DNA of 24,000 nucleotides from Scandinavium sp. Its GTDB lineage: Bacteria; Pseudomonadota; Gammaproteobacteria; Enterobacterales; Enterobacteriaceae. How positions within the stretch are numbered: position 1 is the stretch's first letter; every line of letters begins with the position of its first letter. The translations under genes were made by a program, and so were the position numbers. The stretch is from positions 51,216-75,215 of the forward strand of contig NZ_DATBBJ010000099.1 of NCBI RefSeq assembly GCF_036271055.1, in the 5' to 3' direction. Below the pieces are notes generated by a model. The model did not search any database and was not told the DNA's origin. It was given only the letters and a program-made list of their open reading frames with translations. This document shows, in pieces, positions 2,041-23,888 of this stretch.

Positions 2041-2345
2041 AACGGTAAAAACCTCCGGATAGCGTCAAAACAAATTGCCGGGAAAAATCCGGCGCTCTAT
2101 TAAGCGTAGACATTCGCTTCGATCTTCGGAAACGAAAGCGTGCGCTTCATCACATTTCTTGGTTTATCTCTGTTTGTGCTTTTCGGTTAATCTCATGTTT
2201 TCACAGAATAATCATGGAAAACGAGGCATAGTGAACGTTCTTCACTTTCAGAGCTTTCACTTTGCAACGAATTGTGAATAACGGTAGGGTGAGCCGCTCG
2301 CTATTTCGTCATTCTCCACCTCTTTATCTCAACAGGAAGGCAATA

Positions 2346-3509: not shown

Positions 3510-3514
3510 ATCTG

Positions 3515-3766
3515 TTACCACTTCTTATCGAAGGCGTCGCGACGACCATCGCGGCGGTTTTCGCGCTTGTCCTGACGGCAACGGGAGTTGCTTTTATCAT
3601 TGTCTTTAAAGCACTCTTGCTTCTTATCGCGACCTTCGGTGCGAGCATCCTGACGGGTGTTGCGAGCATCCTGGCGCTCGTTACTGCGATGCGTTGCATG
3701 AGCAGGGAGGGTCATGGCTGACAAGAGCGTCGCAGCCGTTAATACAGAAAGTATTGTTTTTTTCAC
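3515..3766 (-). CDS. small secreted, highly charged (Arg/Asp/Lys-rich) protein of unknown function
   Basis: GTG start. The N-terminus MKKTILSVLTAATLLSAMTLPAHA is a textbook Sec signal with an AHA cleavage site. The 59-aa mature part has RQDAR(N/T) repeats and two Cys. I recognise no family. Confidence 0.55.
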   Translation of the reverse strand: MKKTILSVLTAATLLSAMTLPAHATHRSNERQDARNTRQDARTEGRDKKQECFKDNDKSNSRCRQDKRENRRDGRRDAFDKKW

Positions 3767-4074
3767 GAAGATAAAACCTTATAAATAAATGCAAAGAATG
3801 ACAATTAATATTATTAATATCAGCTCGCATAGTATCTCTTAGCGTAAATTGCAGACGTGGTGCAATTAGTGCTGTCATGTAGAAAAAACAATTCAAAATA
3901 AAATTATAGGGTATTGATCCCTGTGGGTAGCGGCGTGGTTGCGATCTTTCTCTTGAGATTAGCAAATCGATGCAATGGGATTGGAACTTTGGAGGTAGCT
4001 TAATGACAGCATTTTTCTGTGAATGGACGGGAAATCAGGTGCAAACCGGAACAACACTACATGATAATCACTAA

Positions 4075-4825
4075 ATGAAGACAGAAGCGAGCAAAAAGCA
4101 GGAGCTGAGTCTGTTCTATGGTTCATCTCAAGACTGTGTTATCAACCTCTTGGAGGCGTGTGAAACTATATCCCACTCTGGCCCGCTGAATTCGAATCAC
4201 CCTCAAGCTATTGCGAGGCACTCTCATTATCTAATTGAATTAATTGAAAAGATATCACCTCATTTGCATTGTCATACCTATCCAATAGGGCAGCGCTTTA
4301 CTCTGAGTTCGAGCCGTGACTCAAAATGCTACTACATTCGCACGGGTGCAATCTCGCTTTATCGCCAGCCGAATGATGTATTGCTCGAACTCCTTGATGC
4401 GCCAAGTATAAGAGGTATTATTCCGATCCCTCCAGATTCTGCTTCCATCTACACGCTGAAAGTGATAATCCCTGCTGAAATCGCGGTTCTGGATATTGGT
4501 TGCCTCTATGAGTTGTTGGGCGAGTTAAATTTATGGGAAACCTTCTCTCGCTATTTACAAGTGATGTCAAGTATTTTAGGGGAGGTGATTTTCAAACTGG
4601 TAGTGCCATCTGCCTATGATAGTGTGCGAATTCAACTTTATGAGTTAATGGCTAAGCACAGAAAATGTGCGCGAGCGTATCCTGGTTGAGAACTATATTC
4701 GAGATAAAACCAATATTTCACGAAGCCGAATTATGCGAATTCACTCTAATCTGAAAGCAGGTGGATATATTCTGATGGATAGAGGCATTCTAAAGGATAT
4801 AAGTAATATTCCTTTGAAATATTAA
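4075..4825 (+). pseudogene. IprA/YaiV-like regulator (Crp-like N-domain plus C-terminal winged HTH), disrupted by a +1 frameshift
   Basis: The frame-1 ORF 4075-4689 ends ...SAYDSVRIQLYELMAKH then reads junk. Frame 2 is open from 4649 and reads ENVRERILVENYIRDKTNISRSRIMRIHSNLKAGGYILMDRGILKDISNIPLKY, with a stop at 4823-4825. This is collinear with the remembered IprA C-terminus (...RIGVMNYIHQRTRVSRSVVAEVLAALRKGNYIEMNKGKLISINRLPSEY). The shift must lie within 4649-4689, near the A-run cacagaaaatg. Confidence 0.65.
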
Positions 4826-5119
4826 AGGATCGAACCAGTCATGATGTCCCTTTCATATTGGTGTCTTAAGTGTTTGTCGTTAGCTCTTGTTTGTATATTA
4901 GTTTTATTTCTTTTATGATGGCAATTCAGGTTAAGCAAACATTATCTCACCTGCGTAGAGCATTGATCCAGCAGCTTTTATATTGTCATCTTTCGTCTTC
5001 CAGACATAATCGCTGGTTTAAGAAGTGGTTGTCTCGCTGTGGAAATATTCAGTATGCCGGGAAGTCTTTAAAAGTGAATTTAAAAGTGAATAGTGCTGAT
5101 AAGCGAGGTGCTTGTAAAA

Positions 5120-5153
5120 GGGCCAGAGTAAATTCTGGCCCTTTTATTTTTTT
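5120..5153. terminator. bidirectional rho-independent terminator downstream of gor
   Basis: Stem gggccaga (5120-5127) pairs with tctggccc (5134-5141) around a 6-nt loop. It is followed by ttttattttttt on the plus strand and preceded by aaaa, which gives a short U-tract for the minus-strand gor transcript. Confidence 0.7.
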
Positions 5154-5184
5154 ACCGTAGAAGTTTGTACCCGATGCTTATTTC

Positions 5185-6537
5185 TTAACGCATGGTAACA
5201 AATTCTTCTGCAGCCGTCGGGTGAATAGCCACTGTGTTATCGAAATCTTTCTTGGTTGCGCCCATTTTCAGGGCTACCGCGAAGCCTTGCAGGATTTCGT
5301 CCATCCCGAAGCCGATACCGTGAATCCCGACGATTTTCTCTTCCGGGCCCACACACACCAACTTCATACGGCACGGCTGACGGTGAGAGGTCACGGCGGT
5401 GTACATCGCGGTAAAGGAGGATTTATATACCTTCACTGCGTCGTCGCCATACTGCTCACGCGCCTGCGGTTCGCTCAGGCCAATGGTGCCAATTGGCGGA
5501 TGGCTGAACACCACGGTTGGAATGTTGCTGTAATCCAGATGCTCGTCCGGCTTGTTGTTGAACAGGCGCTCGGACAGACGGCGACCTGCCGCCACGGCAA
5601 CAGGCGTTAACTCTACCGCACCCGTGTTATCACCGACGGCATAAATGCCCGGCACGCTGGTGTTCTGGAACTTATCGACAACGATATAACCTTTGTCGTT
5701 GGTTTTCACACCCGTCGCCACCAGGTTGAAATTGTCGTTTGCAGGCTCGCGGCCAATCGCCCAAATCAGGCTATCGACGGTCTGACTACGGCCATCTTCC
5801 AGTTCCAGTGTCAGGCTGCCATCGGCATTTTTAATGACGGCTTTTGGCACTGCATGGGTATGCAGCGTTGGGCCTTCGGCGTTCATCACTTCAACCAGCG
5901 TTTCAACGATCATCGGGTCAAAGCTGCGCAGCGGCGCATGCTTACGCACAAACAGATGCGTTTGGGCACCGAGGCCATTGATCACGCCCGCCAGTTCAAC
6001 CGCGATGTAACCCGCGCCGACAACGGCCACGCGTTTTGGCAGCGCTGGCAACTCGAAGAAACCGTCAGAGTCGATACCGTATTCCACGCCAGGAATATCT
6101 GGGTGGCTCGGACGACCGCCGGTAGCAATCAAAATATGATCGGCAGTCAGCGTTTCACCGTTCACTTCAATGGTTCTTTCATCGACGAAACGGGCAAAGC
6201 CTTTGATCACATCGACGTTATTTTTGCCCAGCACGGTGTCGTACGAGGTGTGAATGCGATCGATATAAGCTGTACGGCTGGAGACCAGCTTGTTCCAGTC
6301 GAAGTGGTTGATAGTGGTGTCGAAGCCGTAGTCCGGGCCGTACATATGAATGGCCTCGCGGATCTGCGCGGCATGCCACATCACTTTCTTCGGTACGCAG
6401 CCGACGTTCACACAGGTGCCGCCGAGCTCTTTGGCTTCAATCAGCGCACATTTCTGGCCGTACATCGCCGCGCGGTTAATGGAGGCGATGCCGCCGCTGC
6501 CGCCGCCGATGGCGATATAGTCATAATGCTTAGTCAT
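5185..6537 (-). CDS. gor: glutathione-disulfide reductase
   Basis: [19 protein letters not shown]... (FAD GxGxxG) with the redox-active [13 protein letters not shown] motif; matches remembered E. coli Gor throughout. The start at 6537 has AAGGAAG 7 nt upstream. The longer ORF to 6621 is an upstream extension. Confidence 0.97.
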
Positions 6538-6607
6538 AGCTTCTTCCTTAATCGTTGATTGCCGCGATTGTATACCTGGAATCCATAGGTTCCACCGATG
6601 ATTGTGA

Positions 6608-7450
6608 TTACTCCGGCACAATCCAGCTAACGGTGGCGTGGCCCGTGCCCGTTGGCACCAGCTTTTTGTGCAGCCATGGCAGCACGTTATTCATCTGTTG
6701 TTCGAGTTTCCACGGCGGATTGATAACGATCATGCCGGATGCCGTCATGCCGCGCTGATCGCTATCCGGACGCACCGCCAGCTCGATTTGCAGAATGCGG
6801 CGAATACCGGTGGCTTCGAGCTCTTTGATCATGCGTTTAATTTGCGCGCGCAATACGACTGGATACCACAATGCATAAGTGCCGGTAGCAAAACGCTTGT
6901 AGCCTTCGCTGATGCCAGAAACGACAGCCTGATAGTCGGTTTTAATCTCATACGGCGGGTCAATCAGTACCAGACCACGGCGTGATGCTGGCGGCAGCTT
7001 GGATTTAAGCTGCTGATAGCCGTCGGATTTCTCCACTCGCGCACGGTCATCTTTCTGAAATTCGGAACGCAGCAGCGGGAAATCGCTCGGGTGCAGTTCG
7101 GTCAGGTTCAGGCTGTCCTGCTCACGCAGCAACTGGCGTGCAATCAGCGGAGAACCCGGGTAATAGCGCAACTGACCGCTGCGGTTGAAATGATTCACCA
7201 CGTTGATGTAAGGCTCTAATTCCGCAGGCAAATCATCCTGCTGCCAGATGCGGGCGATGCCTTCCATGTACTCACCTGTGCGCTCTGCATGCTCGCTGCT
7301 CAGCTGATAACGCCCTGCGCCCGCGTGAGTGTCGAGATAGAGAAACGGTTTTTCTTTCTCTTTCAGCGATTCAATGATCAGGCTCTGAACGGTGTGTTTG
7401 AGGACGTCGGCGTGGTTGCCGGCGTGAAAGCTGTGGCGATAACTGAGCAT
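6608..7450 (-). CDS. rlmJ: 23S rRNA (adenine2030-N6)-methyltransferase
   Basis: [19 protein letters not shown]... and ...LIDPPYE motifs; 280 aa; sits in the conserved yhiR position between gor and prlC. Confidence 0.93.
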
Positions 7451-7572
7451 GAATAAAGGTGTTCCACTGAGTAATTACAGGCCCGGTGAACGCAGTGCCA
7501 CCGGGTCACAAAAAAAAGCGATGGGGACAGTATACAGAAAAGTCTCTGTCGCCGCGAAAGCGCATCGTCTGG

Positions 7573-7602
7573 CATTGAAATCCTCTACACTTAACCCCAT
7601 TC
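7573..7602 (+). promoter_or_regulatory. sigma32-type heat-shock promoter candidate for prlC
   Basis: aTTGAAA (7573-7579), a 14-nt spacer, then CCCCATTCT (7594-7602), compared with the consensus CTTGAAA-N13-15-CCCCATNT. It lies 64 nt upstream of the prlC ATG. prlC/opdA is an established heat-shock gene. Confidence 0.5.
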
Positions 7603-7665
7603 TACAAAGATATGTGCCGCGCCGGATGTGCGCCTCATTCACTCTTTTTAAACAGGACAGCGCTT

Positions 7666-9708
7666 ATGACTAATCCATTACTGACGCCCTTCGATTTGCC
7701 ACCGTTTTCAAAAATCCAGCCAGAGCACGTCGTCCCAGCAGTGACTAAAGCGCTGGACGATTGCCGCACGGCGGTTGAAAGCGTTGTGGCGCAGGGCGCG
7801 CCGTACAGCTGGGAAAGTCTGTGTCAGCCACTGGCCGAAGTGGACGATGTGCTGGGCCGTCTGTTCTCGCCGGTCAGCCATCTGAATTCCGTGAAAAACA
7901 GCCCGGAACTGCGCGAAGCCTATGAGCAGACGCTGCCGCTGCTGTCCGAGTACAGCACCTGGGTGGGTCAGCATGAAGGTTTGTATCAGGCGTATCGTGA
8001 CCTGCGCGACGGTGACCATTACGCAAGCCTGAATACCGCACAGAAAAAAGCAGTCGATAACGCGCTGCGTGATTTTGAGCTGTCCGGGATTGGCCTGTCG
8101 AAAGAGAAACAGAAACGCTACGGCGAAATCGCGGCGCGTCTGTCTGAATTAGGTAACCAGTACAGCAACAACGTGCTCGACGCCACCATGGGCTGGAACA
8201 AGCTTGTCACAGATGAAACTGAGCTTGCCGGGATGCCGGAAAGTGCACTGGCAGCAGCGAAAGCACAGGCCGAAGCCAAAGAACAAGAAGGCTATCTGCT
8301 GACGCTCGACATCCCGAGTTATCTGCCGGTGATGACCTATTGCGACAACCAGGCGCTGCGTGAAGAGATGTATCGCGCTTACACCACTCGTGCGTCTGAC
8401 CAGGGCCCGAATGCCGGGAAATGGGACAACAGCCCGGTAATGGAAGAGATCCTCGCGCTGCGTCACGAATTGGCACAGCTGCTGGGCTTTGAAAGCTATG
8501 CGTTGAAATCGCTGGCGACCAAAATGGCAGAAAACCCGCAGCAGGTGCTCGAATTCCTGACCGATCTGGCAAAACGCGCCCGTCCGCAGGGCGAAAAAGA
8601 ACTGGCTCAGCTGCGTGCGTATGCGAAAGCGGAATTTGGTATCGATGAGTTACAGCCGTGGGATATTGCTTACTACAGCGAAAAACAGAAACAACATCTC
8701 TACAGCATCAGCGACGAACAACTGCGTCCTTACTTCCCGGAAAACAAAGCCGTCAACGGTCTGTTCGAAGTGGTTCAGCGCATTTACGGTATCACCGCCA
8801 AAGAGCGCAAAGACATTGACGTGTGGAGCCCGGAAGTGCGCTTCTTCGAGCTGTACGATGACAAAAACGAACTGCGCGGCAGTTTCTATCTCGATCTCTA
8901 CGCCCGCGAGCACAAACGCGGCGGCGCGTGGATGGATGACTGTGTGGGCCAGATGCGTAAAGCGGACGGTTCGCTGCAAAAACCGGTGGCCTATCTCACC
9001 TGTAACTTCAACCGTCCGGTTAACGGCAAGCCTGCGCTCTTTACCCACGACGAAGTGATCACCCTGTTCCATGAATTTGGTCATGGGCTGCATCACATGC
9101 TGACCCGCATCGAAACCGCAGGCGTTTCGGGCATCAGCGGTGTGCCGTGGGATGCCGTCGAGTTGCCGAGCCAGTTTATGGAAAACTGGTGTTGGGAGCC
9201 GGAAGCGCTGGCGTTTATCTCTGGTCACTTTGAAACGGGCGAACCACTGCCAAAAGAACTGCTGGATAAAATGCTGGCAGCGAAAAACTACCAGGCGGCA
9301 ATGTTCGTGCTGCGTCAGCTGGAATTCGGCCTGTTCGATTTCCGTCTGCATGCCGAATTTAATCCAGAGCAGGGCGCGAAAATCCTCGAGACGCTGGCAG
9401 AAATCAAGAAACAAGTTTCTGTGGTCCCGGGCCCATCATGGGGCCGATTCCCGCACGCTTTCAGCCACATTTTTGCTGGCGGCTATGCGGCAGGTTACTA
9501 CAGCTATTTGTGGGCCGATGTGCTGGCGGCAGACGCGTTCTCTCGTTTCGAAAAAGAAGGGATTTTCAACCGTGAAACTGGGCAGTCGTTCCTCGACAAT
9601 ATCCTGAGCCGTGGCGGTTCCGAAGAGCCAATGACGCTGTTCAAACGCTTCCGTGGCCGTGAACCGCAACTGGACGCGATGCTTGAGCATTACGGCATCA
9701 AAGGCTAA
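7666..9708 (+). CDS. prlC: oligopeptidase A (M3 zinc metallopeptidase)
   Basis: Starts [17 protein letters not shown] at the ATG at 7666. HEFGHGLHH zinc motif; 680 aa; collinear with E. coli PrlC. Confidence 0.95.
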
Positions 9709-9715
9709 CCCGTTC

Positions 9716-10468
9716 GTGAAAATATGTTTAGTTGATGAATCAGGCGCCAGTGATGGCGCCTTATCTGTTCTTGCGACTCGTTGGGGCCTGGAACAGGATG
9801 CGGATAACCTGATGGCGCTGGTGCTCACAACAGAGCATCTCGAACTGCGTAAGCGTGATGAACCCAAACTCGGCGGCATCTTCGTGGATTTTGTGGGTGG
9901 CCCGATGGCGCATCGACGAAAATTCGGCGGCGGTCGTGGGGAAGCGGTGGCGAAAGCGGTGGGCATCAAAGGCAGTTATTTGCCCGATGTCGTGGATGCT
10001 ACGGCAGGATTAGGCCGTGACGCGTTTGTGCTGGCTTCGGTAGGGTGTCGAGTGCGGATGCTGGAACGTAATCCGGTAGTGGCCGCGTTGCTCGATGACG
10101 GTTTGGCTCGCGGCTACGCTGACCCGGAAATCGGCGGCTGGTTGCAAGATCGCTTGCAGTTGATTCATGCCTCGAGTCTAACGGCATTGACCGATATCGC
10201 GCCGCGCCCGCAGGTGGTCTATCTCGACCCGATGTTCCCCCATAAGCAGAAAAGCGCGCTGGTGAAAAAAGAGATGCGAGTGTTTCAGTCGTTGGTGGGG
10301 CCGGATTTAGATGCCGACGGGCTGCTGATCCCTGCACAACAATTGGCGACAAAGCGGGTCGTGGTAAAGCGCCCGGACTACGCACCGCCGCTGGCAGACG
10401 TTGCCACTTCAAACGCAGTGGTGACGAAAGGGCATCGCTTTGATATTTACGCCGGGACGCCGGAATAA
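9716..10468 (+). CDS. rsmJ: 16S rRNA (guanine1516-N2)-methyltransferase
   Basis: The GTG at 9716 gives (M)[24 protein letters not shown]..., matching the remembered RsmJ/YhiQ N-terminus and the rest ([28 protein letters not shown]). Confidence 0.92.
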
Positions 10469-10472
10469 GAAA

Positions 10473-10554
10473 GCCGGGTGGCGATTGCGCCTGACCCGGC
10501 TTACGTTTTTCCGTGATCGTGTAGTGCCCGGTAAGGCTTAGCCGCTACCGGGCA
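10473..10554. repeat. pair of REP-like extragenic palindromes in opposite orientation (BIME-like)
   Basis: gccgggtggcgattgcgcctgacccggcttac (10473-10504; arms GCCGGGT/ACCCGGC) and gtagtgcccggtaaggcttagccgctaccgggca (10521-10554; arms TGCCCGGTA/TACCGGGCA). These resemble the E. coli REP consensus with CTAC/GTAG tails. Confidence 0.6.
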
Positions 10555-10562
10555 ACAAGCTA

Positions 10563-11000: not shown

Positions 11001-11302
11001 AGTGTTACTCCTTCCTTAAGTCTGTGGTTACTCGTTAAGTATAGTCAACTCAACCTTAAAACGACCCTTAAGTTACGTCAATGACCCTTTATCACCAATT
11101 AGTTAAACAAATCTTTGCGCTTTTGCTATTGATTACGATTAAGGATGTGGCAAAAAAATCAGCGGATCTCCTACACTATTAAAAGAGTCGGTCGGCGAAG
11201 TTAATGTGATCGGTCTCTCACTCTTTCACTGACTGTCTGATGAGTTTCGGGGTGCGGTAGTCCTGGAGGGAGTCTCCGTGGGCGGGTCGCCGGGGAGGAG
11301 GT

Positions 11303-13202: not shown

Positions 13203-13432
13203 AGGACGTTACGCCATTTTGAGGACATGAACGCGGCGCATTATCCAGGACAAACGCGGCGTGGGCAAAGAGAAATATAGACTTTTATTGATATTTCTTC
13301 ACCAACGTAAAAATAGTCTTTGGATTATTCCTATATGTTTCAAACGTATGACCCGTCATGAAAAAATTCTTACTGGTCGTACCGCAAGGGAAAATTTACA
13401 ATTCCCGACATTCAAAATGAGAGGACAGGCGT

Positions 13433-14626
13433 GTGGAAAGGTTTGATGCCATTGTTGTCGGCGCGGGCGCGGCGGGAATGTTTTGTGCAGCGCAGGCGGG
13501 ACAGGCCGGGGCGCGAGTGTTGCTTCTGGATAACGGCAAAAAGCCGGGCCGCAAGATTTTAATGTCCGGCGGTGGGCGATGTAACTTCACCAATATGTAC
13601 GTAGAACCCGCGGCGTACCTCAGTCAGAACCCGCATTTTTGCAAATCGGCGCTGGCGCGTTACACCCAGTGGGACTTTATCGATCTGGTCGGAAAATATG
13701 GCATTGCGTGGCATGAGAAGACCCTTGGCCAGTTGTTCTGCGATGATTCCGCCGAGCAAATCGTCGACATGCTGGTGTCGGAATGCGAGAAGGGCGGGGT
13801 CATCACGCGTCTGCGTACCGAGATTATCAGCGTTGAGCGCGACGAAGAGGGCTACACGCTGCAACTCAACGGCGATACGGTGGCGGCGAAAAAACTGGTG
13901 ATTGCCAGCGGCGGGTTATCGATGCCGGGCCTCGGCGCATCGCCATTCGGCTATAAGATTGCCGAGCAGTTTGGCCTGAACGTTTTGCCGACCCGCGCAG
14001 GATTGGTGCCCTTTACACTGCACAAACCGCTGCTGGAACAATTGCAGGTGCTTTCCGGCGTTTCCGTGCCATCGGTGATCACCGCCAATGATGGCACCGT
14101 ATTCCGCGAAAACCTGTTGTTCACCCACCGTGGGCTTTCAGGCCCTGCCGTGCTGCAAATTTCCAGCTTCTGGCAATCTGGTGAATTCGTCAGCATCAAT
14201 CTACTGCCAGAGTGTGATCTTGAAACGTTCCTCGATGAGCAGCGTAACGCGCACCCCAACCAGAGCCTGAAAAACACGCTGGCGATGCAGTTGCCAAAAC
14301 GTCTGGTGGAATGCCTGCAACTGCTGGGGCAAATCCCGGATGTACAACTCAAACAACTTAACAGCAAAGATCAGCAGCAGCTGGTCGACACGCTGACCAA
14401 CTGGCGCATACAGCCAAATGGCACCGAGGGATACCGCACTGCCGAAGTAACGCTGGGTGGTGTCAATACCGATGAGCTTTCCTCACGCACTATGGAAGCG
14501 CGCAAAGTACCGGGGCTTTATTTCATCGGAGAAGTGATGGACGTTACCGGCTGGCTCGGCGGCTACAACTTCCAGTGGGCATGGGCATCGGCCTGGGCGT
14601 GCGCGCAGGCGTTGGTAGAGGCGTAG
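13433..14626 (+). CDS. yhiN: HI0933-like FAD-dependent oxidoreductase
   Basis: GTG start. (M)ERFDAIVVGAGAAGMFCAAQAGQAG (GxGxxG) and ...MSGGGRCNFTN; collinear with E. coli YhiN. Confidence 0.9.
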   Translation: MERFDAIVVGAGAAGMFCAAQAGQAGARVLLLDNGKKPGRKILMSGGGRCNFTNMYVEPAAYLSQNPHFCKSALARYTQWDFIDLVGKYGIAWHEKTLGQLFCDDSAEQIVDMLVSECEKGGVITRLRTEIISVERDEEGYTLQLNGDTVAAKKLVIASGGLSMPGLGASPFGYKIAEQFGLNVLPTRAGLVPFTLHKPLLEQLQVLSGVSVPSVITANDGTVFRENLLFTHRGLSGPAVLQISSFWQSGEFVSINLLPECDLETFLDEQRNAHPNQSLKNTLAMQLPKRLVECLQLLGQIPDVQLKQLNSKDQQQLVDTLTNWRIQPNGTEGYRTAEVTLGGVNTDELSSRTMEARKVPGLYFIGEVMDVTGWLGGYNFQWAWASAWACAQALVEA

Positions 14627-14669
14627 ATCGATAATAATGTTTGTAGCTTAAGCAAAAGGTTTGTAGTTG
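14626..14669. repeat. left arm of the two-module imperfect inverted repeat bounding the 5.6 kb island
   Basis: The outer module gatcgataataatgtttgtagctt (14626-14649) matches the reverse complement of 20255-20278 at 22 of 24 positions. The inner module gtttgtagttg (14659-14669) equals the reverse complement of 20221-20231 at 11 of 11. The arm starts on the last base of the yhiN stop codon. Confidence 0.65.
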
Positions 14670-14755
14670 AAAGGCTGCTGTAGAAATAAAGATTGTTGTT
14701 AATGTGCGCTCGATTCACTTCTCGGGGTTGGCTTCAGCGAGGTGTGGTTGGCTGT

Positions 14756-14789
14756 ATAAAAAACAAACGGCACTCTATTTCAGGTGCCG
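14756..14789 (-). terminator. rho-independent terminator of the island operon (after the MFS gene)
   Basis: On the minus strand: stem acggcac, a 10-nt loop, stem gtgccgt, then TTGTTTTTT. On the plus strand the stems are at 14766-14772 and 14783-14789, with an A-rich run at 14756-14765. Confidence 0.65.
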
Positions 14790-14823
14790 TAATATGGGGA
14801 ATGTCATTGCGATTATGGCGGTG

Positions 14824-16032
14824 TTAGTATGAAGGCGCCGAGCCAGTCAGCCTACTTAACTCCGCAATGCGGAGTTGACGATATGCCAGCACTGTTGAAT
14901 ACAGCGCGAGAAGACAGCAAAGGAAGGCGAAAATAAAAATTGCGGGGTAACCGAAGATGGAGACGATAACTCCGCCAACCAGACCTGAAATGAGGATCCC
15001 TATATCAAAGCAGGATTCATAGGTGCTCAGTGCAAGCCCAATGTTTTCATCAGGCATGCTCTTGATTGCCGGCAATGCCAGTAGCGGATAGACCATAGAC
15101 AGACCGAATCCTGTCATAAACGAGCCCAGCATTGCCATCCATGGGCTTGATGCTAGCCCAATCATCAGGAGCCCTACCGCCTCGATGCAGAGTGAAAACA
15201 AGGTCAGTTTTAGCCCGGAACTGTCGGCTTTCCATCCGAGTGTAAGCCTAGAAAGAACGTATCCTACTCCAAAAAGCGAAATGGCAATAGCGGCCTGCTT
15301 ATCCCAGTCATTTTGCATAAAAAACAGTACCAGAAAACCAGTGATAGAGGCATATCCAATATTCGCCAGTGAAAAACCAGAACCAGCTTTCCAGACGCGT
15401 GTAATAGCGTAAGCAAGGGTGACATGGCTTCTGGAGGGAGAGACAGATACGGGTTTAACTAGCATGACAACGATAAAGCCCAGCAGGGGCAATATTGTCA
15501 TGATTAATGCGGAGATATTCAGACCTGAATGGGCATAGAACCATGTCCCCCCGAAATTCCCGATTGCAAGTCCCAGGAACATGGCAATCCCCACCCAGGA
15601 CATGATTTTCCCTGCATGAGCCTTTCCAACCAGTCCGATTGGCCAAGTTCCACTGCAGGTGAATATCAGACTTTCCCCGATCCCCATCAGTACCCGTGAA
15701 AACAGGATCACGCCGTAAGCTGTGTGAGACGGAGCAATAAACGTAAATGTCAACCAGCACAATAAACCGGCAGAGACCGTAAGAGATAGCCCCAGCGTCA
15801 TCCCTTTTCTTGGGCCTTGGTTGTCAGAATAGCGGCCAGCGAAGGCTCTGGAGACGAGTGTAGCCACGGACTCTGTCGCGATCACAAGCCCGACAAAAAA
15901 CGCCGAATATCCGGCGATTTTATTGATATACAAAGGAAGGATGGCAAGAGATAGCCCAAGGCTGATAATGGCCAGAAAAAGTATTCCAGCCACGAGGGTA
16001 GCAGCGATTAAATTATTCTGGATTTTGTACAT
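14824..16032 (-). CDS. MFS transporter (about 12 TMS, AraJ/YdhP/NepI-like)
   Basis: Hydrophobic throughout. MFS motif A is GRYSDNQGPRKGM. I prefer the ATG at 16032, with AGGA 8 nt upstream. The ORF extends to 16056. It overlaps the upstream formyltransferase gene by 20 nt. Confidence 0.85.
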   Translation of the reverse strand: MYKIQNNLIAATLVAGILFLAIISLGLSLAILPLYINKIAGYSAFFVGLVIATESVATLVSRAFAGRYSDNQGPRKGMTLGLSLTVSAGLLCWLTFTFIAPSHTAYGVILFSRVLMGIGESLIFTCSGTWPIGLVGKAHAGKIMSWVGIAMFLGLAIGNFGGTWFYAHSGLNISALIMTILPLLGFIVVMLVKPVSVSPSRSHVTLAYAITRVWKAGSGFSLANIGYASITGFLVLFFMQNDWDKQAAIAISLFGVGYVLSRLTLGWKADSSGLKLTLFSLCIEAVGLLMIGLASSPWMAMLGSFMTGFGLSMVYPLLALPAIKSMPDENIGLALSTYESCFDIGILISGLVGGVIVSIFGYPAIFIFAFLCCLLALYSTVLAYRQLRIAELSRLTGSAPSY

Positions 16033-16642
16033 GCATATAATCCTTATATACGACACGGGATTCGGACAATGTTATCTTTCCGTTCAAGAAGGCAAGTGCC
16101 GCACGATAAATCATCTTCTGTTCCACTTCAATAATTGCCTGCCGAAGATCACTTTCCGTCATTCCATTGGTAATCCTGACTGGCTCCTGATCAATAATGG
16201 GCCCCGCATCCACTTCCTCATTAATGAAATGCAGTGTGGCTCCGGTGACACGCAACCCCATATTCAAGGCTTTTTGCTGAGCTTTGTCTCCGGGCAAAGC
16301 AGGCAGTAAGGAAGGATGCGTGTTCATGGTTTTATGGCCAAACTCCATGGAGAATTCTTTAGTGAAAATACGTCTGAATCCACCCAGAATCACCAGATCT
16401 ATCTGGTTTTTTCGTAAGATATCGGCGATATGCTCATCAAACGCATGACGTGAATCGAAATTTTTATGATCGATGACCTTAACTTTTCTTCCTGAAAAAT
16501 TGGGGTTAGAGACCGAAGTAAACTCGCGGTTGTTAGTGATAATCACGCTCAGTTCGGCAGCGGTCTGACTGTGTTGCACTGCACGGATAGCGGATTGAAT
16601 AAGGGTTCCTCGCCCTGAAAACAGAAAGGCTATTTTTTTCAT
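16013..16642 (-). CDS. PurN-like folate-dependent formyltransferase (stand-alone, about 209 aa)
   Basis: Collinear with remembered E. coli PurN: FLFSGRGTLIQ (vs LISGNGSNLQ), VILGGFRRI (vs VLAGFMRIL), MNTHPSLLP (vs LNIHPSLLP; Asn and His conserved), EEVDAGPII (vs DELDGGPVI; Asp conserved). Its start overlaps the upstream stop as ATGA (16639-16642). Confidence 0.85.
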   Translation of the reverse strand: MKKIAFLFSGRGTLIQSAIRAVQHSQTAAELSVIITNNREFTSVSNPNFSGRKVKVIDHKNFDSRHAFDEHIADILRKNQIDLVILGGFRRIFTKEFSMEFGHKTMNTHPSLLPALPGDKAQQKALNMGLRVTGATLHFINEEVDAGPIIDQEPVRITNGMTESDLRQAIIEVEQKMIYRAALAFLNGKITLSESRVVYKDYMHVQNPE

Positions 16643-17928
16643 AGTCTGACCTGTGCTCTTAACATTTCATATTCAGTATCATTCAATTCAATATCGACAT
16701 TCACAAACCGACCGTCGATAATAATATTTTCTCCGTTGATCATTACACGCGAAGGACTTTCGCTGTTTAACAATTTGAGAAGCGATACAGGGGTATTAAT
16801 GTAGTCAGTATCAATTTTCGATTTCTCAAAAAGGATCAGATCAGCTTTGTAACCACTTTCTAGTTTGCCAACATTATTCAGGCCCAGTGTTTTGGCTCCG
16901 CCTTCGGTCAGAAAATATAGCAATTTGGCCGCAGACACTTTTTTGCTAAAATCCGTATCTCCATGGTGATATAACGCAAAAAGTGCATCAGATGTCAGGT
17001 TATTGCCCGGATTGACCATTGCCGCATCAGTACCCAGACCGATATTGACATCACTCATCAGGGCTGAGACAGGAAAGGTGCCTGCCCCGACAAAGCTGTT
17101 ACTGACGGGGCAATGAATTATCTGAGCACCACTATTCTTAAGTACAGAAATGTCGTCTTCGGAAAGATGGCTACAGTGAACAAGTGCAGTATGCCGATCA
17201 AGGATCTTTAATTCCGCTAAGCGCTGGATACCACTTTTTCCATACTTAGCACTGTGCAGATCAACCTGTATTTTCCCTTCATGCGCATGCAGGAACAGTC
17301 TGGTTCGGGTGTGACGTGCTGCTTTATGCAGAGCCAAAAGTAGTGCATCGTCGGCCGATAGTTCGGAGGCCGTAGCCGGGCTCACTGATACAAGAGAGTC
17401 TTGGTAAGAAGAAAGCGCTGCATAAAAATTATCACAGGCCACATCCACGGTACTGCGCTGTGGGCTCTGACCTTTCCCTGCCCACATGTTGCTCTGGCAA
17501 AAATTGACCACACAGCGACACCCTGTGAGTCTGGCGGCCAGGACGTCATTCTCAGCACGACTGGTAAACAGTCCAAATGTCGTCACGCCCTTTTTTATTC
17601 CAGAGGACAGCGCCTTTAGGGCCGCGATATACTGTCCCTGAGGTGACTCCAGCTCATTATTTTTATGTACAGAATCCAGCACCATATCAATCGGTGAGGC
17701 ATCAAGAATGCTGCAATGAATTTCTTTACTGGGATGAAGGTGGGCATTGACTAGCCCCGGGAAAGCAATAAGCTGGCTGGCTTCGACGATTGCTGTTTCA
17801 CTGCAGACGACCAAATCTCTCCCAATCTCAACGATGGTGTCGTCTTCGATATAGATGTCACCGCTAATGAGCAACATAGGGACCACATCAAGATATTTTA
17901 TCCCTTTAAACAGGATCTTCGTTTTCAT
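16639..17928 (-). CDS. ATZ/TRZ-type metal-dependent amidohydrolase, nucleobase/nucleoside deaminase-like
   Basis: PGLVNAHLHP (HxH), LHAHEG (His plus catalytic-type Glu), VHCSHL and GTDAA (Asp) occur in the canonical order. I prefer the start MKTKILFKG at 17928. The ORF extends to 17979. Confidence 0.85.
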   Translation of the reverse strand: MKTKILFKGIKYLDVVPMLLISGDIYIEDDTIVEIGRDLVVCSETAIVEASQLIAFPGLVNAHLHPSKEIHCSILDASPIDMVLDSVHKNNELESPQGQYIAALKALSSGIKKGVTTFGLFTSRAENDVLAARLTGCRCVVNFCQSNMWAGKGQSPQRSTVDVACDNFYAALSSYQDSLVSVSPATASELSADDALLLALHKAARHTRTRLFLHAHEGKIQVDLHSAKYGKSGIQRLAELKILDRHTALVHCSHLSEDDISVLKNSGAQIIHCPVSNSFVGAGTFPVSALMSDVNIGLGTDAAMVNPGNNLTSDALFALYHHGDTDFSKKVSAAKLLYFLTEGGAKTLGLNNVGKLESGYKADLILFEKSKIDTDYINTPVSLLKLLNSESPSRVMINGENIIIDGRFVNVDIELNDTEYEMLRAQVRL

Positions 17929-18027
17929 AATGGCTCTCTGTTTGCTGGTACAGGACAGTGGCACCTGGAGTCTGTTCATACAGACCTGTATGCCAGCCTC
18001 CTTCCTGTTAAATAAAAGTGCTGATAC

Positions 18028-18591
18028 TTATAATTTCAGGGCTTTTTGTTCGGCAATCATAGATCCAAATGCGCAACGCAGCGCTGTGCTGAATTCATCT
18101 GACCGGGTATACATCCCTCCCGTCAGGACGCCGTTCGTTCCCAACCGTTCCAGTTCCTGCCGAGAGATGGATGCAAATTTTTCCAGTACCAGATCGGAAA
18201 GCTTCAGGTTGCGTGAAAGGCCAACGGCGACGTCGGCTGGGAGCATGATCTTACCGCTGCAGCCGTAATACATTCTGCCGTCAGCGATATTTTTCAGGAC
18301 TGCCCATCCATAAAGAAAGGTCCCGTAGGATGTTTTTTCAGTAAGCCCCTCCAGAGCAATGACTACGTCAACTTCTCCTCCCAGCTTGGCTTCGAGGTTT
18401 TCAATCCGGCGGTGGCAGCCTGCCAAGGCTTCTTCATCGGTGTCAGGTGTTTCACTGACCCCGGAAGAGATGGCATAACATCTCAGTGAGAAATTATGGA
18501 ACGCCTGGCTGCATATTTCTTTTGTCGCTTTTATTTTTGCACTATTTTCAGAACATAAAGCGATAAGGGGGTGATTATTCGGCATGCGCAT
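18028..18591 (-). CDS. DUF84 / YjjX-like non-canonical NTP phosphatase homologue
   Basis: Collinear with remembered E. coli YjjX: CSENSAKIKA (vs ATTNPAKIQA), SSGVSETPDTDEEALAGCHRRIENL (vs [25 protein letters not shown]), GTNGVLTGGMYTRSDEF (vs GAIGVFTAGKLTRASVY). The start is ambiguous (ATG at 18591 or 18585; the ORF extends to 18663). Either start overlaps the upstream gene's 3' end. Confidence 0.75.
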   Translation of the reverse strand: MRMPNNHPLIALCSENSAKIKATKEICSQAFHNFSLRCYAISSGVSETPDTDEEALAGCHRRIENLEAKLGGEVDVVIALEGLTEKTSYGTFLYGWAVLKNIADGRMYYGCSGKIMLPADVAVGLSRNLKLSDLVLEKFASISRQELERLGTNGVLTGGMYTRSDEFSTALRCAFGSMIAEQKALKL

Positions 18592-19621
18592 GTACCCACT
18601 TAATAACTGGAGTCTGTTGTTGGCCGTTAATGATATCGGACAACGTATCCTGTGCTGATTCAATTAGCGGCATGCGCTTATCACTATCACTGAGCAGGTG
18701 ACTTTCTATCACCTCATGGGCCTTTTGCAGAGTTTTATTGTAGATTTGTGTGAAGGTAGTTTTCATGACTGTGGTACCGAGTCCCAGACCGTTCATGCCA
18801 CTCTGACATAAATCCTTCCACAATAATTCATGAATGAACGAAAAGAAGCCCATGTCATACGGTAAGCCTGTAATAACATCAGTACTTCGGGATGTTGTTT
18901 CGCAGTACAGGGCATTATTCTTTATGTAAAATTGAATGCCGACGGTGCAGGGAAAATCTTTGGTGTCTGACTTGTGGTAATTCTGATTAATGTTAATAAT
19001 AGCTCTGCGAGAATCCCGGTTAGCCATCAGAACATGCTTTGCCCAGTTATACTGGTTGCCGTATCCTTCTACAGGTTCATAAAAGACATAATACCCATAG
19101 TTTGAATTAACGTTACCGTCATCATCGGTCAGGCTCATCCAGAATTTTGAGGCTTTCGCCAGCCCGTCTTCAGCCTTCAGGCTTCCCTTAAAGTAGGCAA
19201 CAAACTCTCTGGCAAGATACCGAATAGCTCCTTGTCTGGTGGTATGCAATCTGTTCAGAGGGTGCCTTAATAAATAGTTTACACCATAGGCCTGCTGCGC
19301 ATCACCTGCGCGAGATGAGATGGATTCCCCTTCTGCAAGAATATGGTAAACCCCATTTCTGACGAGTTCATCGACTGAATCCGCTGCAATCGTTTTGTAG
19401 TTATTACATGAAGTGATAATGCCGTTATCCATGACGCATCCTTTGCTGAGTAATAAACATATATCACAATCCATATTAAGAATATCGACGAGGAATTTAT
19501 TGTCTATGTTTTTTTGGCTTTTATAAGCTAGGTGCATTCCAGTTATGCAATTATAAAGAGAAGGGGGTTTAGCACCGCTAAAGGATGTGTCAGTGAATTG
19601 AATGGTCTGATATTTCATCAT
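18575..19621 (-). CDS. thymidylate-synthase-superfamily enzyme, closest to T4 gp42-type deoxycytidylate (or CMP) 5-hydroxymethyltransferase
   Basis: Motifs collinear with remembered T4 gp42 and ThyA: YLAREFVAYF (gp42 YIQRELEWY), GNVNSNYGYYVF (gp42 GEINSNYGWAIW), NRDSRRAIINI (NPDSRRGIMIY), DFPCTVGIQFYI (catalytic Cys; gp42 DFMCTNTVQYLI; ThyA APCHAFFQFYV), TSRSTDVITGLPYDMGFF (gp42 NMRSNDVVFGFRNDYAW; ThyA YQRSCDVFLGLPFNIAS). Confidence 0.85.
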   Translation of the reverse strand: MMKYQTIQFTDTSFSGAKPPSLYNCITGMHLAYKSQKNIDNKFLVDILNMDCDICLLLSKGCVMDNGIITSCNNYKTIAADSVDELVRNGVYHILAEGESISSRAGDAQQAYGVNYLLRHPLNRLHTTRQGAIRYLAREFVAYFKGSLKAEDGLAKASKFWMSLTDDDGNVNSNYGYYVFYEPVEGYGNQYNWAKHVLMANRDSRRAIININQNYHKSDTKDFPCTVGIQFYIKNNALYCETTSRSTDVITGLPYDMGFFSFIHELLWKDLCQSGMNGLGLGTTVMKTTFTQIYNKTLQKAHEVIESHLLSDSDKRMPLIESAQDTLSDIINGQQQTPVIKWVHAHAE

Positions 19622-20220
19622 GATACTATTGAGGCCTTGCCAGGCCGGTGTTTCTTTTGTTATTTTCTGAGTGAATATATTAAGTGTCTGTGAATTTTCG
19701 CGGTTTAATCTATGTCTTTTAATTAATTAGACCTGTGTCACGTTTTTGATATTATTACAGACGACGGCGTTTTAAAATTAAACGAGGGGGCTTCATGACC
19801 GGATTCGTCATCCAATACGACGCTATCTCCTTACAATAAAAAGCCCATACAGAGGTAGGAAGCGACCTGCGCCAGTCACTGTCCTGATGCTTAGCCTAGC
19901 CCACAAACTCCAGCATGTCCCCTGCCAGCAGCCTGAATGTATGCATACTGTCCGTGGTAGCGGTGATCGCAGTCTCTCCTGCATCGGTGGCCAGAGAGTT
20001 GCCCTTTAGTTCCCCTAGCACAACAGCCAGTGACCCTCTATCGGTTTGCATGGACCTAATGCTGTCGAGTATGCACTCAGCGGTGCAGATATGTAACATT
20101 CGGTAGGCTAGCAATCAGGTGCACACGATTGCATCTTCCTGTCTTAGCATCAGAATTGCGACTCAGGGTGGAAGATAGGTCTGACAATCCCTTGTTTGTC
20201 TTACTGGTAAGCACTGAATG

Positions 20221-20278
20221 CAACTACAAACTTTTTTACTGAAAAAATCCCTCAAAGCTACAAACTTTATTGTCGATC
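20221..20278. repeat. right arm of the two-module imperfect inverted repeat bounding the island
   Basis: caactacaaac (20221-20231) and aagctacaaactttattgtcgatc (20255-20278) are mirror images of the inner and outer modules at 14659-14669 and 14626-14649. The spacer is 23 nt here and 9 nt on the left. Confidence 0.65.
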
Positions 20279-20403
20279 CATAAGAGGTGTAAGAGCAGAA
20301 CAACAGGGAAGGCATCAATAGCACAAAATAATTCCCTGTTTTTATCGTGGGAATGTATGATGCTTCACCCTTTTGCCCGAGCCAGGATTAAGACAAAGAA
20401 CGC

Positions 20404-20583
20404 ATGAACATTTACGTGATTATGTCCGTGACCCTATCATTAAAGCTGCTGTTTACGTTTTTCGTCTATAAGAAAAACAAACAGAGCTTCAAAAGATTGA
20501 GCCTGCCCGCAAAAGGGGCCGTGATTGGCGGAGGCTGGCTTGCCAGCTATGGCCTTCTACAGATTGTCGAAGGTTTCATCTAA
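20404..20583 (+). CDS. possible 59-aa small membrane protein
   Basis: ATG at 20404. MNIYVIMSVTLSLKLLFTFFVYKKNKQSFKRLSLPAKGAVIGGGWLASYGLLQIVEGFI has two hydrophobic segments separated by a basic loop. The SD is weak and the 3' end overlaps the convergent NlpC/P60 gene by 8 nt. The ORF is below the track's length cut-off. Confidence 0.3.
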   Translation: MNIYVIMSVTLSLKLLFTFFVYKKNKQSFKRLSLPAKGAVIGGGWLASYGLLQIVEGFI

Positions 20584-21172
20584 CGACGGTCTCTGGCAAC
20601 ACTCTACGCACTGCCAGCAGGCGACGGTTCCAGTAAGGGTCATTCAGCTGTGAAATGGTGACCCCTTTCCGGCGGGATGCGTGAATAAACCGATTTTCCC
20701 CGATATAAATCCCCACATGTTTTTGCGCTCGCCCGGTTTTAAAGAACACCAGATCGCCAATCCGCCTCGTACCCTGCTTCGCTCTTTTACCTCTTGTTAA
20801 TTGCCCGGTCGTTGTTCGCGGCAAGTTCACGTCAAACGCATCCTGATACAAGCGGCGGGTCAGTGCAGAGCAATCAATCGCTTTGTGCGAGTTTGCTCCC
20901 AGTCGATAGCGGGTGCCTTTCCATTGTTTGTACTGGTTCATCAGGCGGGTACGGCGTTTGAGATTTGCCGCAGTTTTAATGGGCTTTGAGGCTGTCTGAA
21001 TTTTAATCGGTTTTGCGGTTGTTTTTTTATGCTTGTGTTTATGCTTCGTGCTTGTTTTGGTGTGTGTTTTTTTGTGATGAGGGGCGGCGTGATGATCACG
21101 AGCAGCCTGCGCGCTACAGTGGAAGGAAAACAATAAACAGAACAATAAGACAAGGCGCAGAGACATAATCAC
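20576..21172 (-). CDS. secreted NlpC/P60-family peptidoglycan endopeptidase with a His/Lys/Thr-rich linker
   Basis: Signal peptide MIMSLRLVLLFCLLFSFHCSAQA. NlpC/P60 catalytic pattern: AIDCSALTRRLY (Cys), HVGIYIGENRFIHAS (His...His). Confidence 0.85.
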   Translation of the reverse strand: MIMSLRLVLLFCLLFSFHCSAQAARDHHAAPHHKKTHTKTSTKHKHKHKKTTAKPIKIQTASKPIKTAANLKRRTRLMNQYKQWKGTRYRLGANSHKAIDCSALTRRLYQDAFDVNLPRTTTGQLTRGKRAKQGTRRIGDLVFFKTGRAQKHVGIYIGENRFIHASRRKGVTISQLNDPYWNRRLLAVRRVLPETVVR

Positions 21173-22748: not shown

Positions 22749-23888
22749 ATGAGTGAATTTTTACCTTTCTCACGCCCGTCTATGGGAGATGAGGAGTTTG
22801 CCGCGCTGAAAGGCGTGTTGCAGTCGGGCTGGATCACAACAGGCCCGAAGAATGCTCAGCTCGAAGAGGCGTTTTGCGCCTTAACTGGCAACCGCAACGC
22901 GATTGCCGTGAGCTCTGCGACCGGCGGGATGCACGTGACTCTGATGGCGCTCGACATCGGGCCGGGCGACGAAGTGATTACTCCCTCGCAGACCTGGGTT
23001 TCCACGCTCAATATGATTGAACTGCTGGGTGCGACCCCAGTAATGATTGACGTTAACCACGACACGTTGATGGTCACCCCGGAGGCCGTCGCGGCGGCTA
23101 TCACGGCACGTACTAAAGCCATTATTCCCGTTCACTATGCCGGTGCGCCGTGCGATATCGACGCCATCCGCGCCATTGCCGCACAGCACGGTATTCCGGT
23201 CATTGAAGATGCCGCCCACGCTGCGGGCACTTATTACAAAGGCCGCCACGTTGGTGACAAAGGCACAGCGATTTTCTCCTTCCACGCGATCAAAAACATG
23301 ACCTGCGCCGAAGGTGGCCTGATTGTCACTGATGATGACCAGCTTGCGTTACGCATTCGCAGCCTGAAATTTCACGGTCTGGGCGTGGATGCTTATGACC
23401 GCCAGACTCACGGTCGTGCACCGCAGGCTGAAGTGATTTCTCCAGGCTTTAAATACAACCTCGCGGACATCAACGCCGCACTGGCGCTGGTTCAGCTCGG
23501 TAAACTGCGTCAGGCGAATATTCGCCGAAGCGAGATTGCGCAGCGCTATCTCACTGAACTGGCTGATACGCCTTTCCAGCCGCTGGCAATACCGGCTTGG
23601 TCGCACCAGCACGCCTGGCACCTGTTTATCATTCGCGTAGATGAAACCCGCTGCGGCATCAGCCGTGACTGTCTGATGGAACAACTGAAAGCGCAGGGTA
23701 TCGGCACCGGGCTGCATTTCCGCGCCGCGCACACGCAAAAATACTACCGCGAACGCTATCCACACCTCTCCTTGCCGAACACGGAGTGGAACAGCGCCCG
23801 CATCTGTTCTCTGCCTCTTTTCCCGGATATGACTCATGACGACACAACCCGCGTCATTTCTGCGCTCCGTCAGCTCGCAGGACATTGA
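22749..23888 (+). CDS. arnB: UDP-4-amino-4-deoxy-L-arabinose--oxoglutarate aminotransferase
   Basis: [13 protein letters not shown]...GWITTGPKN...SFHAIKN (PLP Lys)...; collinear with remembered E. coli ArnB; AAGGA SD upstream. Confidence 0.95.

Follow-up and report, generated by a model that had tools for sequence, protein, structure and literature searches.

A five-gene island behind yhiN of Scandinavium as a probable non-autonomous Tn7-like element with Tn6230-type ends

Introduction

In a stretch of 24,000 nucleotides from Scandinavium sp. (contig NZ_DATBBJ010000099.1, positions 51,216 to 75,215; hereafter the window), an operon of five genes lies directly downstream of yhiN and is enclosed between two arms in inverted orientation. 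The question raised by this locus is what these arms are and how the operon came to lie between them. In the original prediction, made from the letters alone, the arms were described as a two-module imperfect inverted repeat beginning on the yhiN stop codon, and were interpreted either as terminal inverted repeats of a mobile unit devoid of its transposase or as the halves of an ancestral palindrome, into the loop of which the operon was inserted. The follow-up analysis described here indicates that the arms are very probably the right (yhiN-side) and the left end of a 5661-bp non-autonomous Tn7-like transposon with ends of the Tn6230 type. Tn6230 and related Tn7-like elements specific for yhiN have been described (PMC11406308 Table 1, PMC10121019, PMC3401170, PMC8417528). 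The mobile-unit interpretation was right in substance, because the ends are homologous to those of tnsABCD-carrying elements, a 5-bp duplication flanks the unit, and a second copy on contig L115 is flanked by a different duplication; the arms, however, are not simple terminal repeats but multi-site ends of the Tn7 type. Loci and contigs from other genomes are designated below by L numbers.

Homology and limits of the island ends

The sequences, spacers and mirror order of the arms agreed exactly with the original prediction. The outer module GATCGATAATAATGTTTGTAGCTT (14626-14649) is complementary to AAGCTACAAACTTTATTGTCGATC (20255-20278) at 22 of 24 positions, and the inner module GTTTGTAGTTG (14659-14669) to CAACTACAAAC (20221-20231) at all 11, the two modules being separated by 9 nt in the left arm and 23 nt in the right arm. 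By a repeat finder, the outer pair was detected as the top inverted pair of the region (24 nt, 92%), and the inner pair was extended to 16 nt (14654-14669 / 20221-20236, 94% complementary). The view that such a pairing is very unlikely by chance was also upheld: all four exact matches to GTTTGTAGYT in the window are located inside the two arms, and the 22/24 pair exceeded the best pair in 40 of 40 shuffles. The margin was narrow (shuffle maximum, 21), and therefore homology, not statistics, is the strongest evidence on the arms. A weight matrix for TnsB-type sites, trained solely on element ends from other genomes, was then applied to the whole window with a threshold of 9 bits, and all of the five matches above the threshold fell within the two ends.

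When yhiN together with the left arm was used as the query of a distant search, a total of 5,423 E. coli genomes matched over yhiN, and in 37 of these the match ran past the yhiN end. In the one that was inspected (WP4-W18-ESBL-09), tnsA, tnsB, tnsC and a gene of the TnsD family come, in this order, immediately after yhiN. The junction aligns with the left arm of the window, with three copies of AATAAAGTTTGTAC at 0, +20 and +52. The right arm together with 110 bp inside it gave a single plasmid match, 77% identical over 168 bp, in Klebsiella pneumoniae CP120875 (pKP19-2581_367k). This match is the left end of an element of about 22 kb carrying tnsD, tnsC, tnsB and tnsA; the other end reads TGTGAACCGACAATAAAGTTTGTAG, the termini are TGTGGATC and TGTGAACC, and the element is flanked by the 5-bp direct repeat CCACA. 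Copies of the module pair around other cargo, a search for which was suggested in the original prediction, exist in the form of homologous ends bracketing a complete tnsABCD element. No left-end homologue was found in 5,426 E. coli genomes, and among plasmids the K. pneumoniae record was the only one. A metagenome scan with STACAAACTTTATTGTCG revealed further true ends, among which contig Ga0308165_1000097 has a right end in yhiN (L093) and a left end about 33 kb off (L112), and the right end at L092 is identical to that of the K. pneumoniae plasmid element.

The limits of the element were set at 14622-20282 because the ends of intact relatives read TGTG plus 4 nt plus GACAATAAAG. As borders, the arms of the original prediction are real but fall short of the exact limits, since the element is 4 nt longer on each side, and it starts 2 nt before the yhiN stop codon rather than on it. 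Directly outside these limits, a 5-bp target-site duplication was identified as AGAGG, 4 nt outside both arms (Table 1). The right-end octamer of intact relatives is TGTGAACC or TGTGGATC, and the first base in the window is C as against T.

Table 1 Features of the yhiN-associated island in the window (TnsB-type sites are predicted)
Feature	Position	Strand	Remarks
yhiN 3' end with conserved block AAYTTCCARTGGGC at 14567-14580	14567..14621	+	presumed attachment site
Left target-site duplication copy AGAGG	14617..14621	.	inside yhiN codons GTA GAG G
Right-end terminal octamer CGTAGATC	14622..14629	+	yhiN-proximal; contains yhiN stop TAG, 14624-14626
Predicted TnsB-type binding site R1 GATAATAATGTTTGTAGCTT	14630..14649	+	22.3 bits
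Predicted TnsB-type binding site R2 AAGCAAAAGGTTTGTAGTTG	14650..14669	+	13.7 bits; 20 nt after R1
Predicted TnsB-type binding site R3, degenerate, AGAAATAAAGATTGTTGTTA	14682..14701	+	16.0 bits; 32 nt after R2
Intrinsic terminator of cargo operon, stem CGGCAC...GTGCCG then UUUGUUUUUU	14752..14789	-	-12.3 kcal/mol, z = -3.5
Cargo gene 5, MFS transporter, 402 aa	14824..16032	-	
Cargo gene 4, PurN-type formyltransferase, 209 aa	16013..16642	-	TIGR00639, 156 bits (cut-off 150)
Cargo gene 3, amidohydrolase of deaminase/chlorohydrolase type, 429 aa	16639..17928	-	
Cargo gene 2, NTPase of DUF84 / inosine-xanthosine triphosphatase family, 187 aa	18028..18591	-	
Cargo gene 1, thymidylate-synthase-like (ThyA-like)	18575..19621	-	longest open reading frame 348 aa; called 285 aa in L115
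Left end, inner part	20113..20220	-	non-coding; conserved with left ends of complete elements
Predicted TnsB-type binding site L2 AGTAAAAAAGTTTGTAGTTG (outside inwards)	20221..20240	-	23.0 bits
Predicted TnsB-type binding site L1 GACAATAAAGTTTGTAGCTT (outside inwards)	20255..20274	-	26.6 bits, best of the window
Left-end terminal octamer GATCCATA (+ strand), TATGGATC (outside inwards)	20275..20282	-	intact relatives: TGTGGATC
Right target-site duplication copy AGAGG	20283..20287	.	same 4-nt distance outside the arm as left copy
Displaced original yhiN end TG TAA	20288..20292	+	joined to 14621 gives GTA GAG GTG TAA (ALVEV*)

The yhiN-side end contains three predicted sites, and the first of these (R1) corresponds in the alignment to the first site in the tnsABCD element of E. 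coli. The spacing of 20 nt between R1 and R2 is also found in the right ends of E. coli, Grimontia and Ferrimonas. The third, degenerate module (R3) had been missed in the original prediction, and its counterpart in L115 is better preserved (AGCAATAAAGCTTGTAGTTA). The resulting layout of 0/+20/+52 is that of the right ends of E. coli, Ferrimonas and L115, and three sites beside yhiN form the layout of the tnsA-proximal (right) end in E. coli, Grimontia and Ferrimonas. At the opposite end, the two sites are 34 nt apart as in the K. pneumoniae left end, and are followed by about 110 bp of conserved inner sequence, which is included in the 168-bp match to the K. pneumoniae element and has similar counterparts in L112 and L096. 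The decayed open reading frame (ORF) that had been proposed inside this end is not recognisable; the segment is conserved transposon-end sequence. It gave no match to Pfam or Rfam, the small ORFs within 19823-20324 gave no Pfam match at E up to 1, and no riboswitch or other known RNA was detected by Rfam in 14400-20700 at E up to 1. The ~20-bp sites of both ends have a common core, AATAAAGTTTGTAG. Judged from homology and architecture, the modules are putative TnsB-type binding sites rather than parts of a palindrome, and the asymmetric multi-site ends, packed on the right and spread on the left, look as expected of Tn7-like ends of the Tn6230 subfamily.

With respect to transposition genes, the element is not an autonomous member of this family: tnsA, tnsB, tnsC and tnsD are absent, and all five genes between the ends belong to other Pfam families. 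Tblastn of the whole window with TnsA-D of E. coli and K. pneumoniae gave nothing better than E = 0.09. Remnants of a LysR regulator were not found in the window either.

A second copy of the element

The amidohydrolase of the window has a single relative with 96% identity, located on contigs L115 and L116. In these contigs, the same five genes with the same kind of ends are inserted in yhiN of a Trabulsiella-like genome, forming a tns-less element of 5727 bp. Its termini are intact (TGTG...CACA; TGTGAACC... and ...GGATCCACA), and the target-site duplication is GGAAG on both sides. The similarity between the window and L115 extends from yhiN through the element and ends at 20280, and the homology with both L115 and the K. 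pneumoniae left end ends within the left terminal octamer. Beyond this point the flanks are unrelated, L115 having an aldehyde dehydrogenase, a GntR regulator and nik genes, and the window an NlpC/P60 protein, a GerE regulator and arn genes.

The two elements are 94.3% identical (5337/5657), as compared with 81.7% for the flanking yhiN coding sequences; by region, the element ends are 79% and 87% identical and the cargo 93-98%. The duplications AGAGG and GGAAG differ at two positions, and on the yhiN side these differences are synonymous (GTA GAG vs GTG GAA). In both the window and L115, the right-hand copy of the duplication mirrors the yhiN allele of its own genome, which argues for separate insertion events; under a single ancestral insertion, the duplications must have undergone four parallel substitutions. 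These observations altogether point to two independent insertions and to horizontal spread of the element. If the tns-less unit was transposed as such at least twice, the transposition proteins must have been supplied in trans, as is feasible because mini-elements consisting of ends alone, such as mini-Tn7 and mini-Tn6022, transpose when Tns proteins are provided in trans (PMC11014353). We infer that TnsABCD acted in this way on the tns-less element, and likewise that an autonomous relative was its source. Compatible-looking autonomous elements occur in other Enterobacteriaceae.

Unoccupied yhiN sites and alternative origins

Empty sites were taken from Trabulsiella odontotermitis, which is the closest named relative of the second host and has a YhiN protein sharing 94-96% identity with the one in L115. 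Two unoccupied sites (L123, L124) read ...GCGCTGGTTGAGG/AGTAA and ...GCGCTGGTGGATG/ATTAG, where the slash corresponds to the end of the duplicated 5 bp, and neither arm is present. The yhiN sites of Kosakonia, Lelliottia, Raoultella and E. coli K-12 are also without arms. Removal of the element and one AGAGG from the window restores the yhiN end GTA GAG GTG TAA, and the stop codon of the T. odontotermitis sites stands at the same position as in the reconstructed empty sites of the window (/TGTAA) and of L115 (/CATAA). The empty site foreseen in the original prediction is thus confirmed in form, with the reconstructed yhiN stop exactly where real empty sites have it. The original prediction had also named the absence of both arms from relatives lacking the operon as an outcome that would speak against it; this absence is observed, and it brings down the palindrome interpretation but leaves the mobile-unit interpretation standing.

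An ancestral palindromic intergenic element after yhiN, such as a terminator, a miniature inverted-repeat transposable element (MITE) or a repeat like the repetitive extragenic palindrome (REP) or the enterobacterial repetitive intergenic consensus (ERIC), with the operon inserted into its loop, would fit the fact that the arms without cargo make an imperfect palindrome of about 100 bp. This origin can practically be dismissed. No such palindrome is seen at the armless empty sites of T. odontotermitis and the other relatives, and the window contains no further occurrence of the motif. The arms have their homologues in the ends of tnsABCD elements, which lie 22-33 kb apart; part of the left arm is yhiN coding sequence, and the unit is bounded by a 5-bp duplication. 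A composite origin is very improbable. In this scenario, the two ends would stem from different Tn7-like insertions into the same attachment site, that of the left end being the older, and the operon would have arrived between them by another route. Successive insertions at one attachment site can in principle stack ends, as generally known for Tn7 sites, the right end has the E. coli-type spacing and the left end resembles the K. pneumoniae type, and the operon also travels on plasmids without Tn7 ends; the matching 5-bp duplications at both ends in both genomes, however, tie each pair of ends to one event, and the whole unit with both ends is common to two species.

The island could also be the fossil of a full-length Tn6230-type element that was inserted once, lost tnsABCD by internal deletion, and was inherited vertically without ever transposing as a mini-element. 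Such a history would be in keeping with the mutated termini of the window copy, with the lower conservation of the ends than of the cargo when the two copies are compared, and with the frequent occurrence of truncated Tn6230-related regions on IncHI2 plasmids (PMC13049778). The copies in the window and L115 are nevertheless collinear and tns-less with different duplications, each mirrored on both sides, and the elements are more similar to each other than are the yhiN genes, with unrelated downstream flanks. One insertion would need the four parallel substitutions mentioned above, and two identical independent deletions are very unlikely, which makes the fossil history improbable, if less so than the composite one.

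Several points nevertheless weigh against a Tn7-like mini-element. It is known in two lineages only, and its mobility in trans amounts to two insertion events. No autonomous partner was found in the same genome within the part covered, namely the 24-kb window plus 20 kb of a 465-kb contig, and no empty site of the same species is available for the host of the window, the YhiN of which forms a singleton cluster; an exact look-up of the predicted ancestral YhiN (...ALVEV) gave no entry in the collection, and the species of the window was absent from the close relatives listed in a scan with YhiN. Both termini of the window copy deviate from TGT/ACA, and activity cannot be claimed for this copy. 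Binding of TnsB to the sites in the window is predicted from homology and architecture. Lacking tnsABCD, the island is best described as a natural non-autonomous 'mini' derivative of a known transposon family; the homology of the ends, the duplication, the common insertion position, the absence of tns genes and the two independent insertions are shown by the sequences.

For this mini-element, the following course of insertion can be proposed. A TnsD-type protein of an autonomous relative elsewhere in the cell, for instance on a plasmid, would recognise the conserved 3' part of yhiN, and TnsABC of the same relative would excise the mini-element at its ends and paste it about 55 nt downstream of the recognised sequence, two codons before the yhiN stop. 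The 5-bp duplication would be generated upon insertion, and a new in-frame stop would be provided by the end octamer so that yhiN stays intact.

Attachment site at the yhiN 3' end

The insertion point in the window is 55 nt downstream of the start of the AAYTTCCARTGGGC block, and the distance from the block to the terminus was 53-56 nt in seven occupied sites across genera. The offset is 55 in the window, Kluyvera (L005) and the metagenome contig (L093), 53 in E. coli (L001) and an E. coli-type contig (L111), 54 in Ferrimonas (L057) and about 56 in Grimontia (L027); it is 55 also in the L115 copy. Insertion at the yhiN 3' end thus appears to be site-specific and orientation-specific, with the right end towards the gene, and the AAYTTCCARTGGGC block would be recognised by a TnsD-type protein.

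At +55, the terminus TGTGA brings TGA in frame, and yhiN is therefore shortened by only the last residue or two. In the window, the stop at the same position is TAG, within the transposon terminal octamer, and in E. coli (+53) yhiN now ends with a TAA that lies in the first TnsB-type site. In several subfamilies, the replacement stop codon of yhiN is supplied by the transposon terminus TGTGA itself. Since the molecular details of the yhiN attachment site are listed as unknown in a review (PMC11406308), the comparison gives a base-level view of this site, with insertion 53-56 nt from a conserved block and within the last codons of the gene.

Two further yhiN loci were noted. In Kluyvera sp. 142359 (L005 11190-13467), a Tn7-like element of another subfamily with sites ACAATAAAGTTTGCCCG is inserted in yhiN at +55; the matches to tnsA and tnsB are each in two pieces, which may reflect frameshifts. 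In Yersinia proxima (L015 ~11185-11215), a single TnsB-like site AAAAATAAAGTTTGTCG without any others is located directly 3' of yhiN, and may be all that is left of an old right end.

State of the copy in the window

The termini in the window read CGTA... and ...CATA, as against TGTG... and ...CACA in L115 and the K. pneumoniae element, and the terminal 5'-TGT...ACA-3' characteristic of the family has therefore been lost in this copy (CGT at 14622, ATA at 20282). The transferred strands would end with ...ACG-3' at the right end and ...ATA-3' at the left end, not with ...ACA-3'. The terminal bases are identical in both independent assemblies. In addition, R3 is weaker in the window than in L115, and no other part of the element is as poorly conserved as the end regions (79% and 87%, as above). 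Elements of this kind are normally immobilised by changing TGT/ACA (PMC11014353), and the window copy has probably lost its mobility.

A further proposal is that the window copy is a domesticated, immobilised mini-transposon which retains good TnsB-binding sites and serves as a plug conferring target immunity against Tn6230-type elements. An engineered immobile mini-Tn6022 at comM reduces transposition from ~100% to ~2e-5 % (PMC11014353). In comparison with the right-end type of L115 and the K. pneumoniae element, the right octamer has changed from TGTGAACC to CGTAGATC at four of eight positions and still keeps the in-frame yhiN stop (TGA to TAG), which lends the proposal some support; as a whole it is rather unlikely. 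If it were true, the cargo would be held permanently in the safe site of yhiN, and Tn6230-type elements, often carriers of metal- and colistin-resistance genes, would be blocked by the plug.

Relation to known elements

The element in the window resembles Tn6230 and other members of the Tn6230 subfamily (Tn6574 and others) in the attachment site at the yhiN 3' end, the 5-bp duplication and the orientation of the packed-site end towards yhiN. The type of the ends is also similar: the published ends of Tn6230 are TGTCCGAAGACAATAAAGTTGT / TGTACACAGACATTAAAGTTGT, i.e. TGT..AGACAATAAAGTTGT, with a 5-bp repeat (PMC13049778), and those of the window are of the type ..GATCGA(C/T)AATAA(A/T)GTTTGTAG, the core of the sites being GTTTGTAG as against GTTGT in Tn6230. 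The window element differs from Tn6230 in the absence of tnsABCD, in its size of 5.7 kb instead of 37 kb or more, in a nucleotide-type operon in place of sil/cop/mcr as cargo, and in its mutated termini. With the element on pKP19-2581_367k it has in common the left end described above, the site consensus and the 5-bp duplication, and the octamers of that plasmid element (TGTGGATC and TGTGAACC) are those of the L115 mini-element copy; the plasmid element, in contrast, is about 22 kb in size, encodes TnsA, B, C and D, carries defence-type cargo and is inserted in a plasmid rather than in yhiN.

In its construction, a right end of about 80 bp and a left end of about 170 bp around cargo without transposition genes, the element is similar to the laboratory mini-Tn7 and mini-Tn6022, and the altered TGT/ACA termini of the window copy have a counterpart in the engineered immobile mini-Tn6022 (PMC11014353). 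Unlike these laboratory mini-elements, the window element is natural, and its mobilisation in trans is suggested by two independent insertions. Partly degraded Tn7-like elements of cyanobacteria (PMC11837452) are comparable in that the ends are intact, the transposition genes are defective, and multiple copies or insertions suggest complementation in trans, but they retain tns remnants, whereas the window element consists of ends and one operon without any remnant. MITEs and mobile insertion cassettes derived from insertion sequences are also non-autonomous, with family ends and a transposase acting in trans; they have simple terminal inverted repeats and many sites, in contrast to the asymmetric multi-site ends and the single attachment site of the window element. 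A cargo-only element of Tn6230 type with independent insertions was not described in the literature searched, the coverage of which was incomplete.

Since Tn7-like elements are usually found through tnsABC, units composed of ends and cargo are invisible to the surveys that catalogue these elements by such genes. Natural ends of ~80 bp and ~170 bp around one operon appear to have reached yhiN separately in two species. This implies that small operons of unrelated content can be brought to a conserved site of the chromosome by Tn6230-type machinery, which is common on IncHI plasmids with sil, pco and mcr-9.

Some observations were made on the other elements. After the right end at L093, at least 9 kb (1299-10322) are without a tns gene and encode a ketoacyl synthase, an RND efflux pump, a TetR regulator and an outer-membrane factor; L093/L112 is thus a further and larger element without tns genes, unless these are located at a distance from the right end. 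At L096 (~840-945), a left end close to that of the window contains the terminal TnsB-type site alone, the 34-bp segment of the second site being missing. The cargo of the K. pneumoniae element (L090 704-12481) is defence-like and encodes an FRG-domain protein and a UvrD-type helicase, as well as a ubiquitin-like set made up of a multiubiquitin-domain protein, a ThiF-family adenylyltransferase and a DUF6527 protein. A viral contig also matched the scan pattern; it has neither a TGTG terminus nor a second site and is probably a chance match.

Cargo operon and neighbouring genes

The GC content of the island is about 45% as compared with about 55% for the flank, and two independent assemblies (a 465-kb JGI contig and a Logan contig) are 100% identical to the window across the island. 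The operon ends with an intrinsic terminator, the fold of which was not equalled by any of 200 shuffles. The operon is of a nucleotide/folate type. From the co-occurrence of a ThyA-like enzyme, an NTPase, a deaminase-type hydrolase, a formyltransferase and an exporter, we guess that the cargo is engaged in synthesis and export of a modified nucleobase or nucleotide. No match indicating a defence role of the cargo was obtained with PADLOC.

Copies of the operon with about 65-72% identity are present on a 5.7-kb ColE1-like E. coli plasmid, on IncK2/Z and IncFII plasmids, and in Trabulsiella and Edwardsiella (L003, L087, L088, L117, L119 and L121), and no Tn7-type ends were found around these ~70%-identical copies. 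The five-gene operon is itself a travelling cassette. In Edwardsiella (L119), the operon lies between two direct copies of the panE'-yajL region (6724-7023 and 13267-13566), which have a length of at least 300 bp, are 99% identical and are 6543 bp apart; this direct duplication points to a mechanism of insertion or duplication different from that in the window.

A candidate yhiN terminator just past the right target-site duplication folds weakly (z = -1.3) and is not claimed. The left flank of the island consists of gor, rlmJ, prlC, rsmJ, uspA, uspB, pitA and yhiN as in E. coli; dtpB, which separates rsmJ from uspA in E. coli (L001) and Trabulsiella (L123, L124), is absent from the window (10469-10562). 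On the other side, the segment 20576-22700, up to arnB (22749-23888), contains a gene for an NlpC/P60 endopeptidase, a LuxR/GerE-type regulator and a 122-aa ORF, with a GC content of just 36-45% in part. Because nikR-nikABCDE holds this position in T. odontotermitis (L124), the segment represents a second variable segment beside the island.

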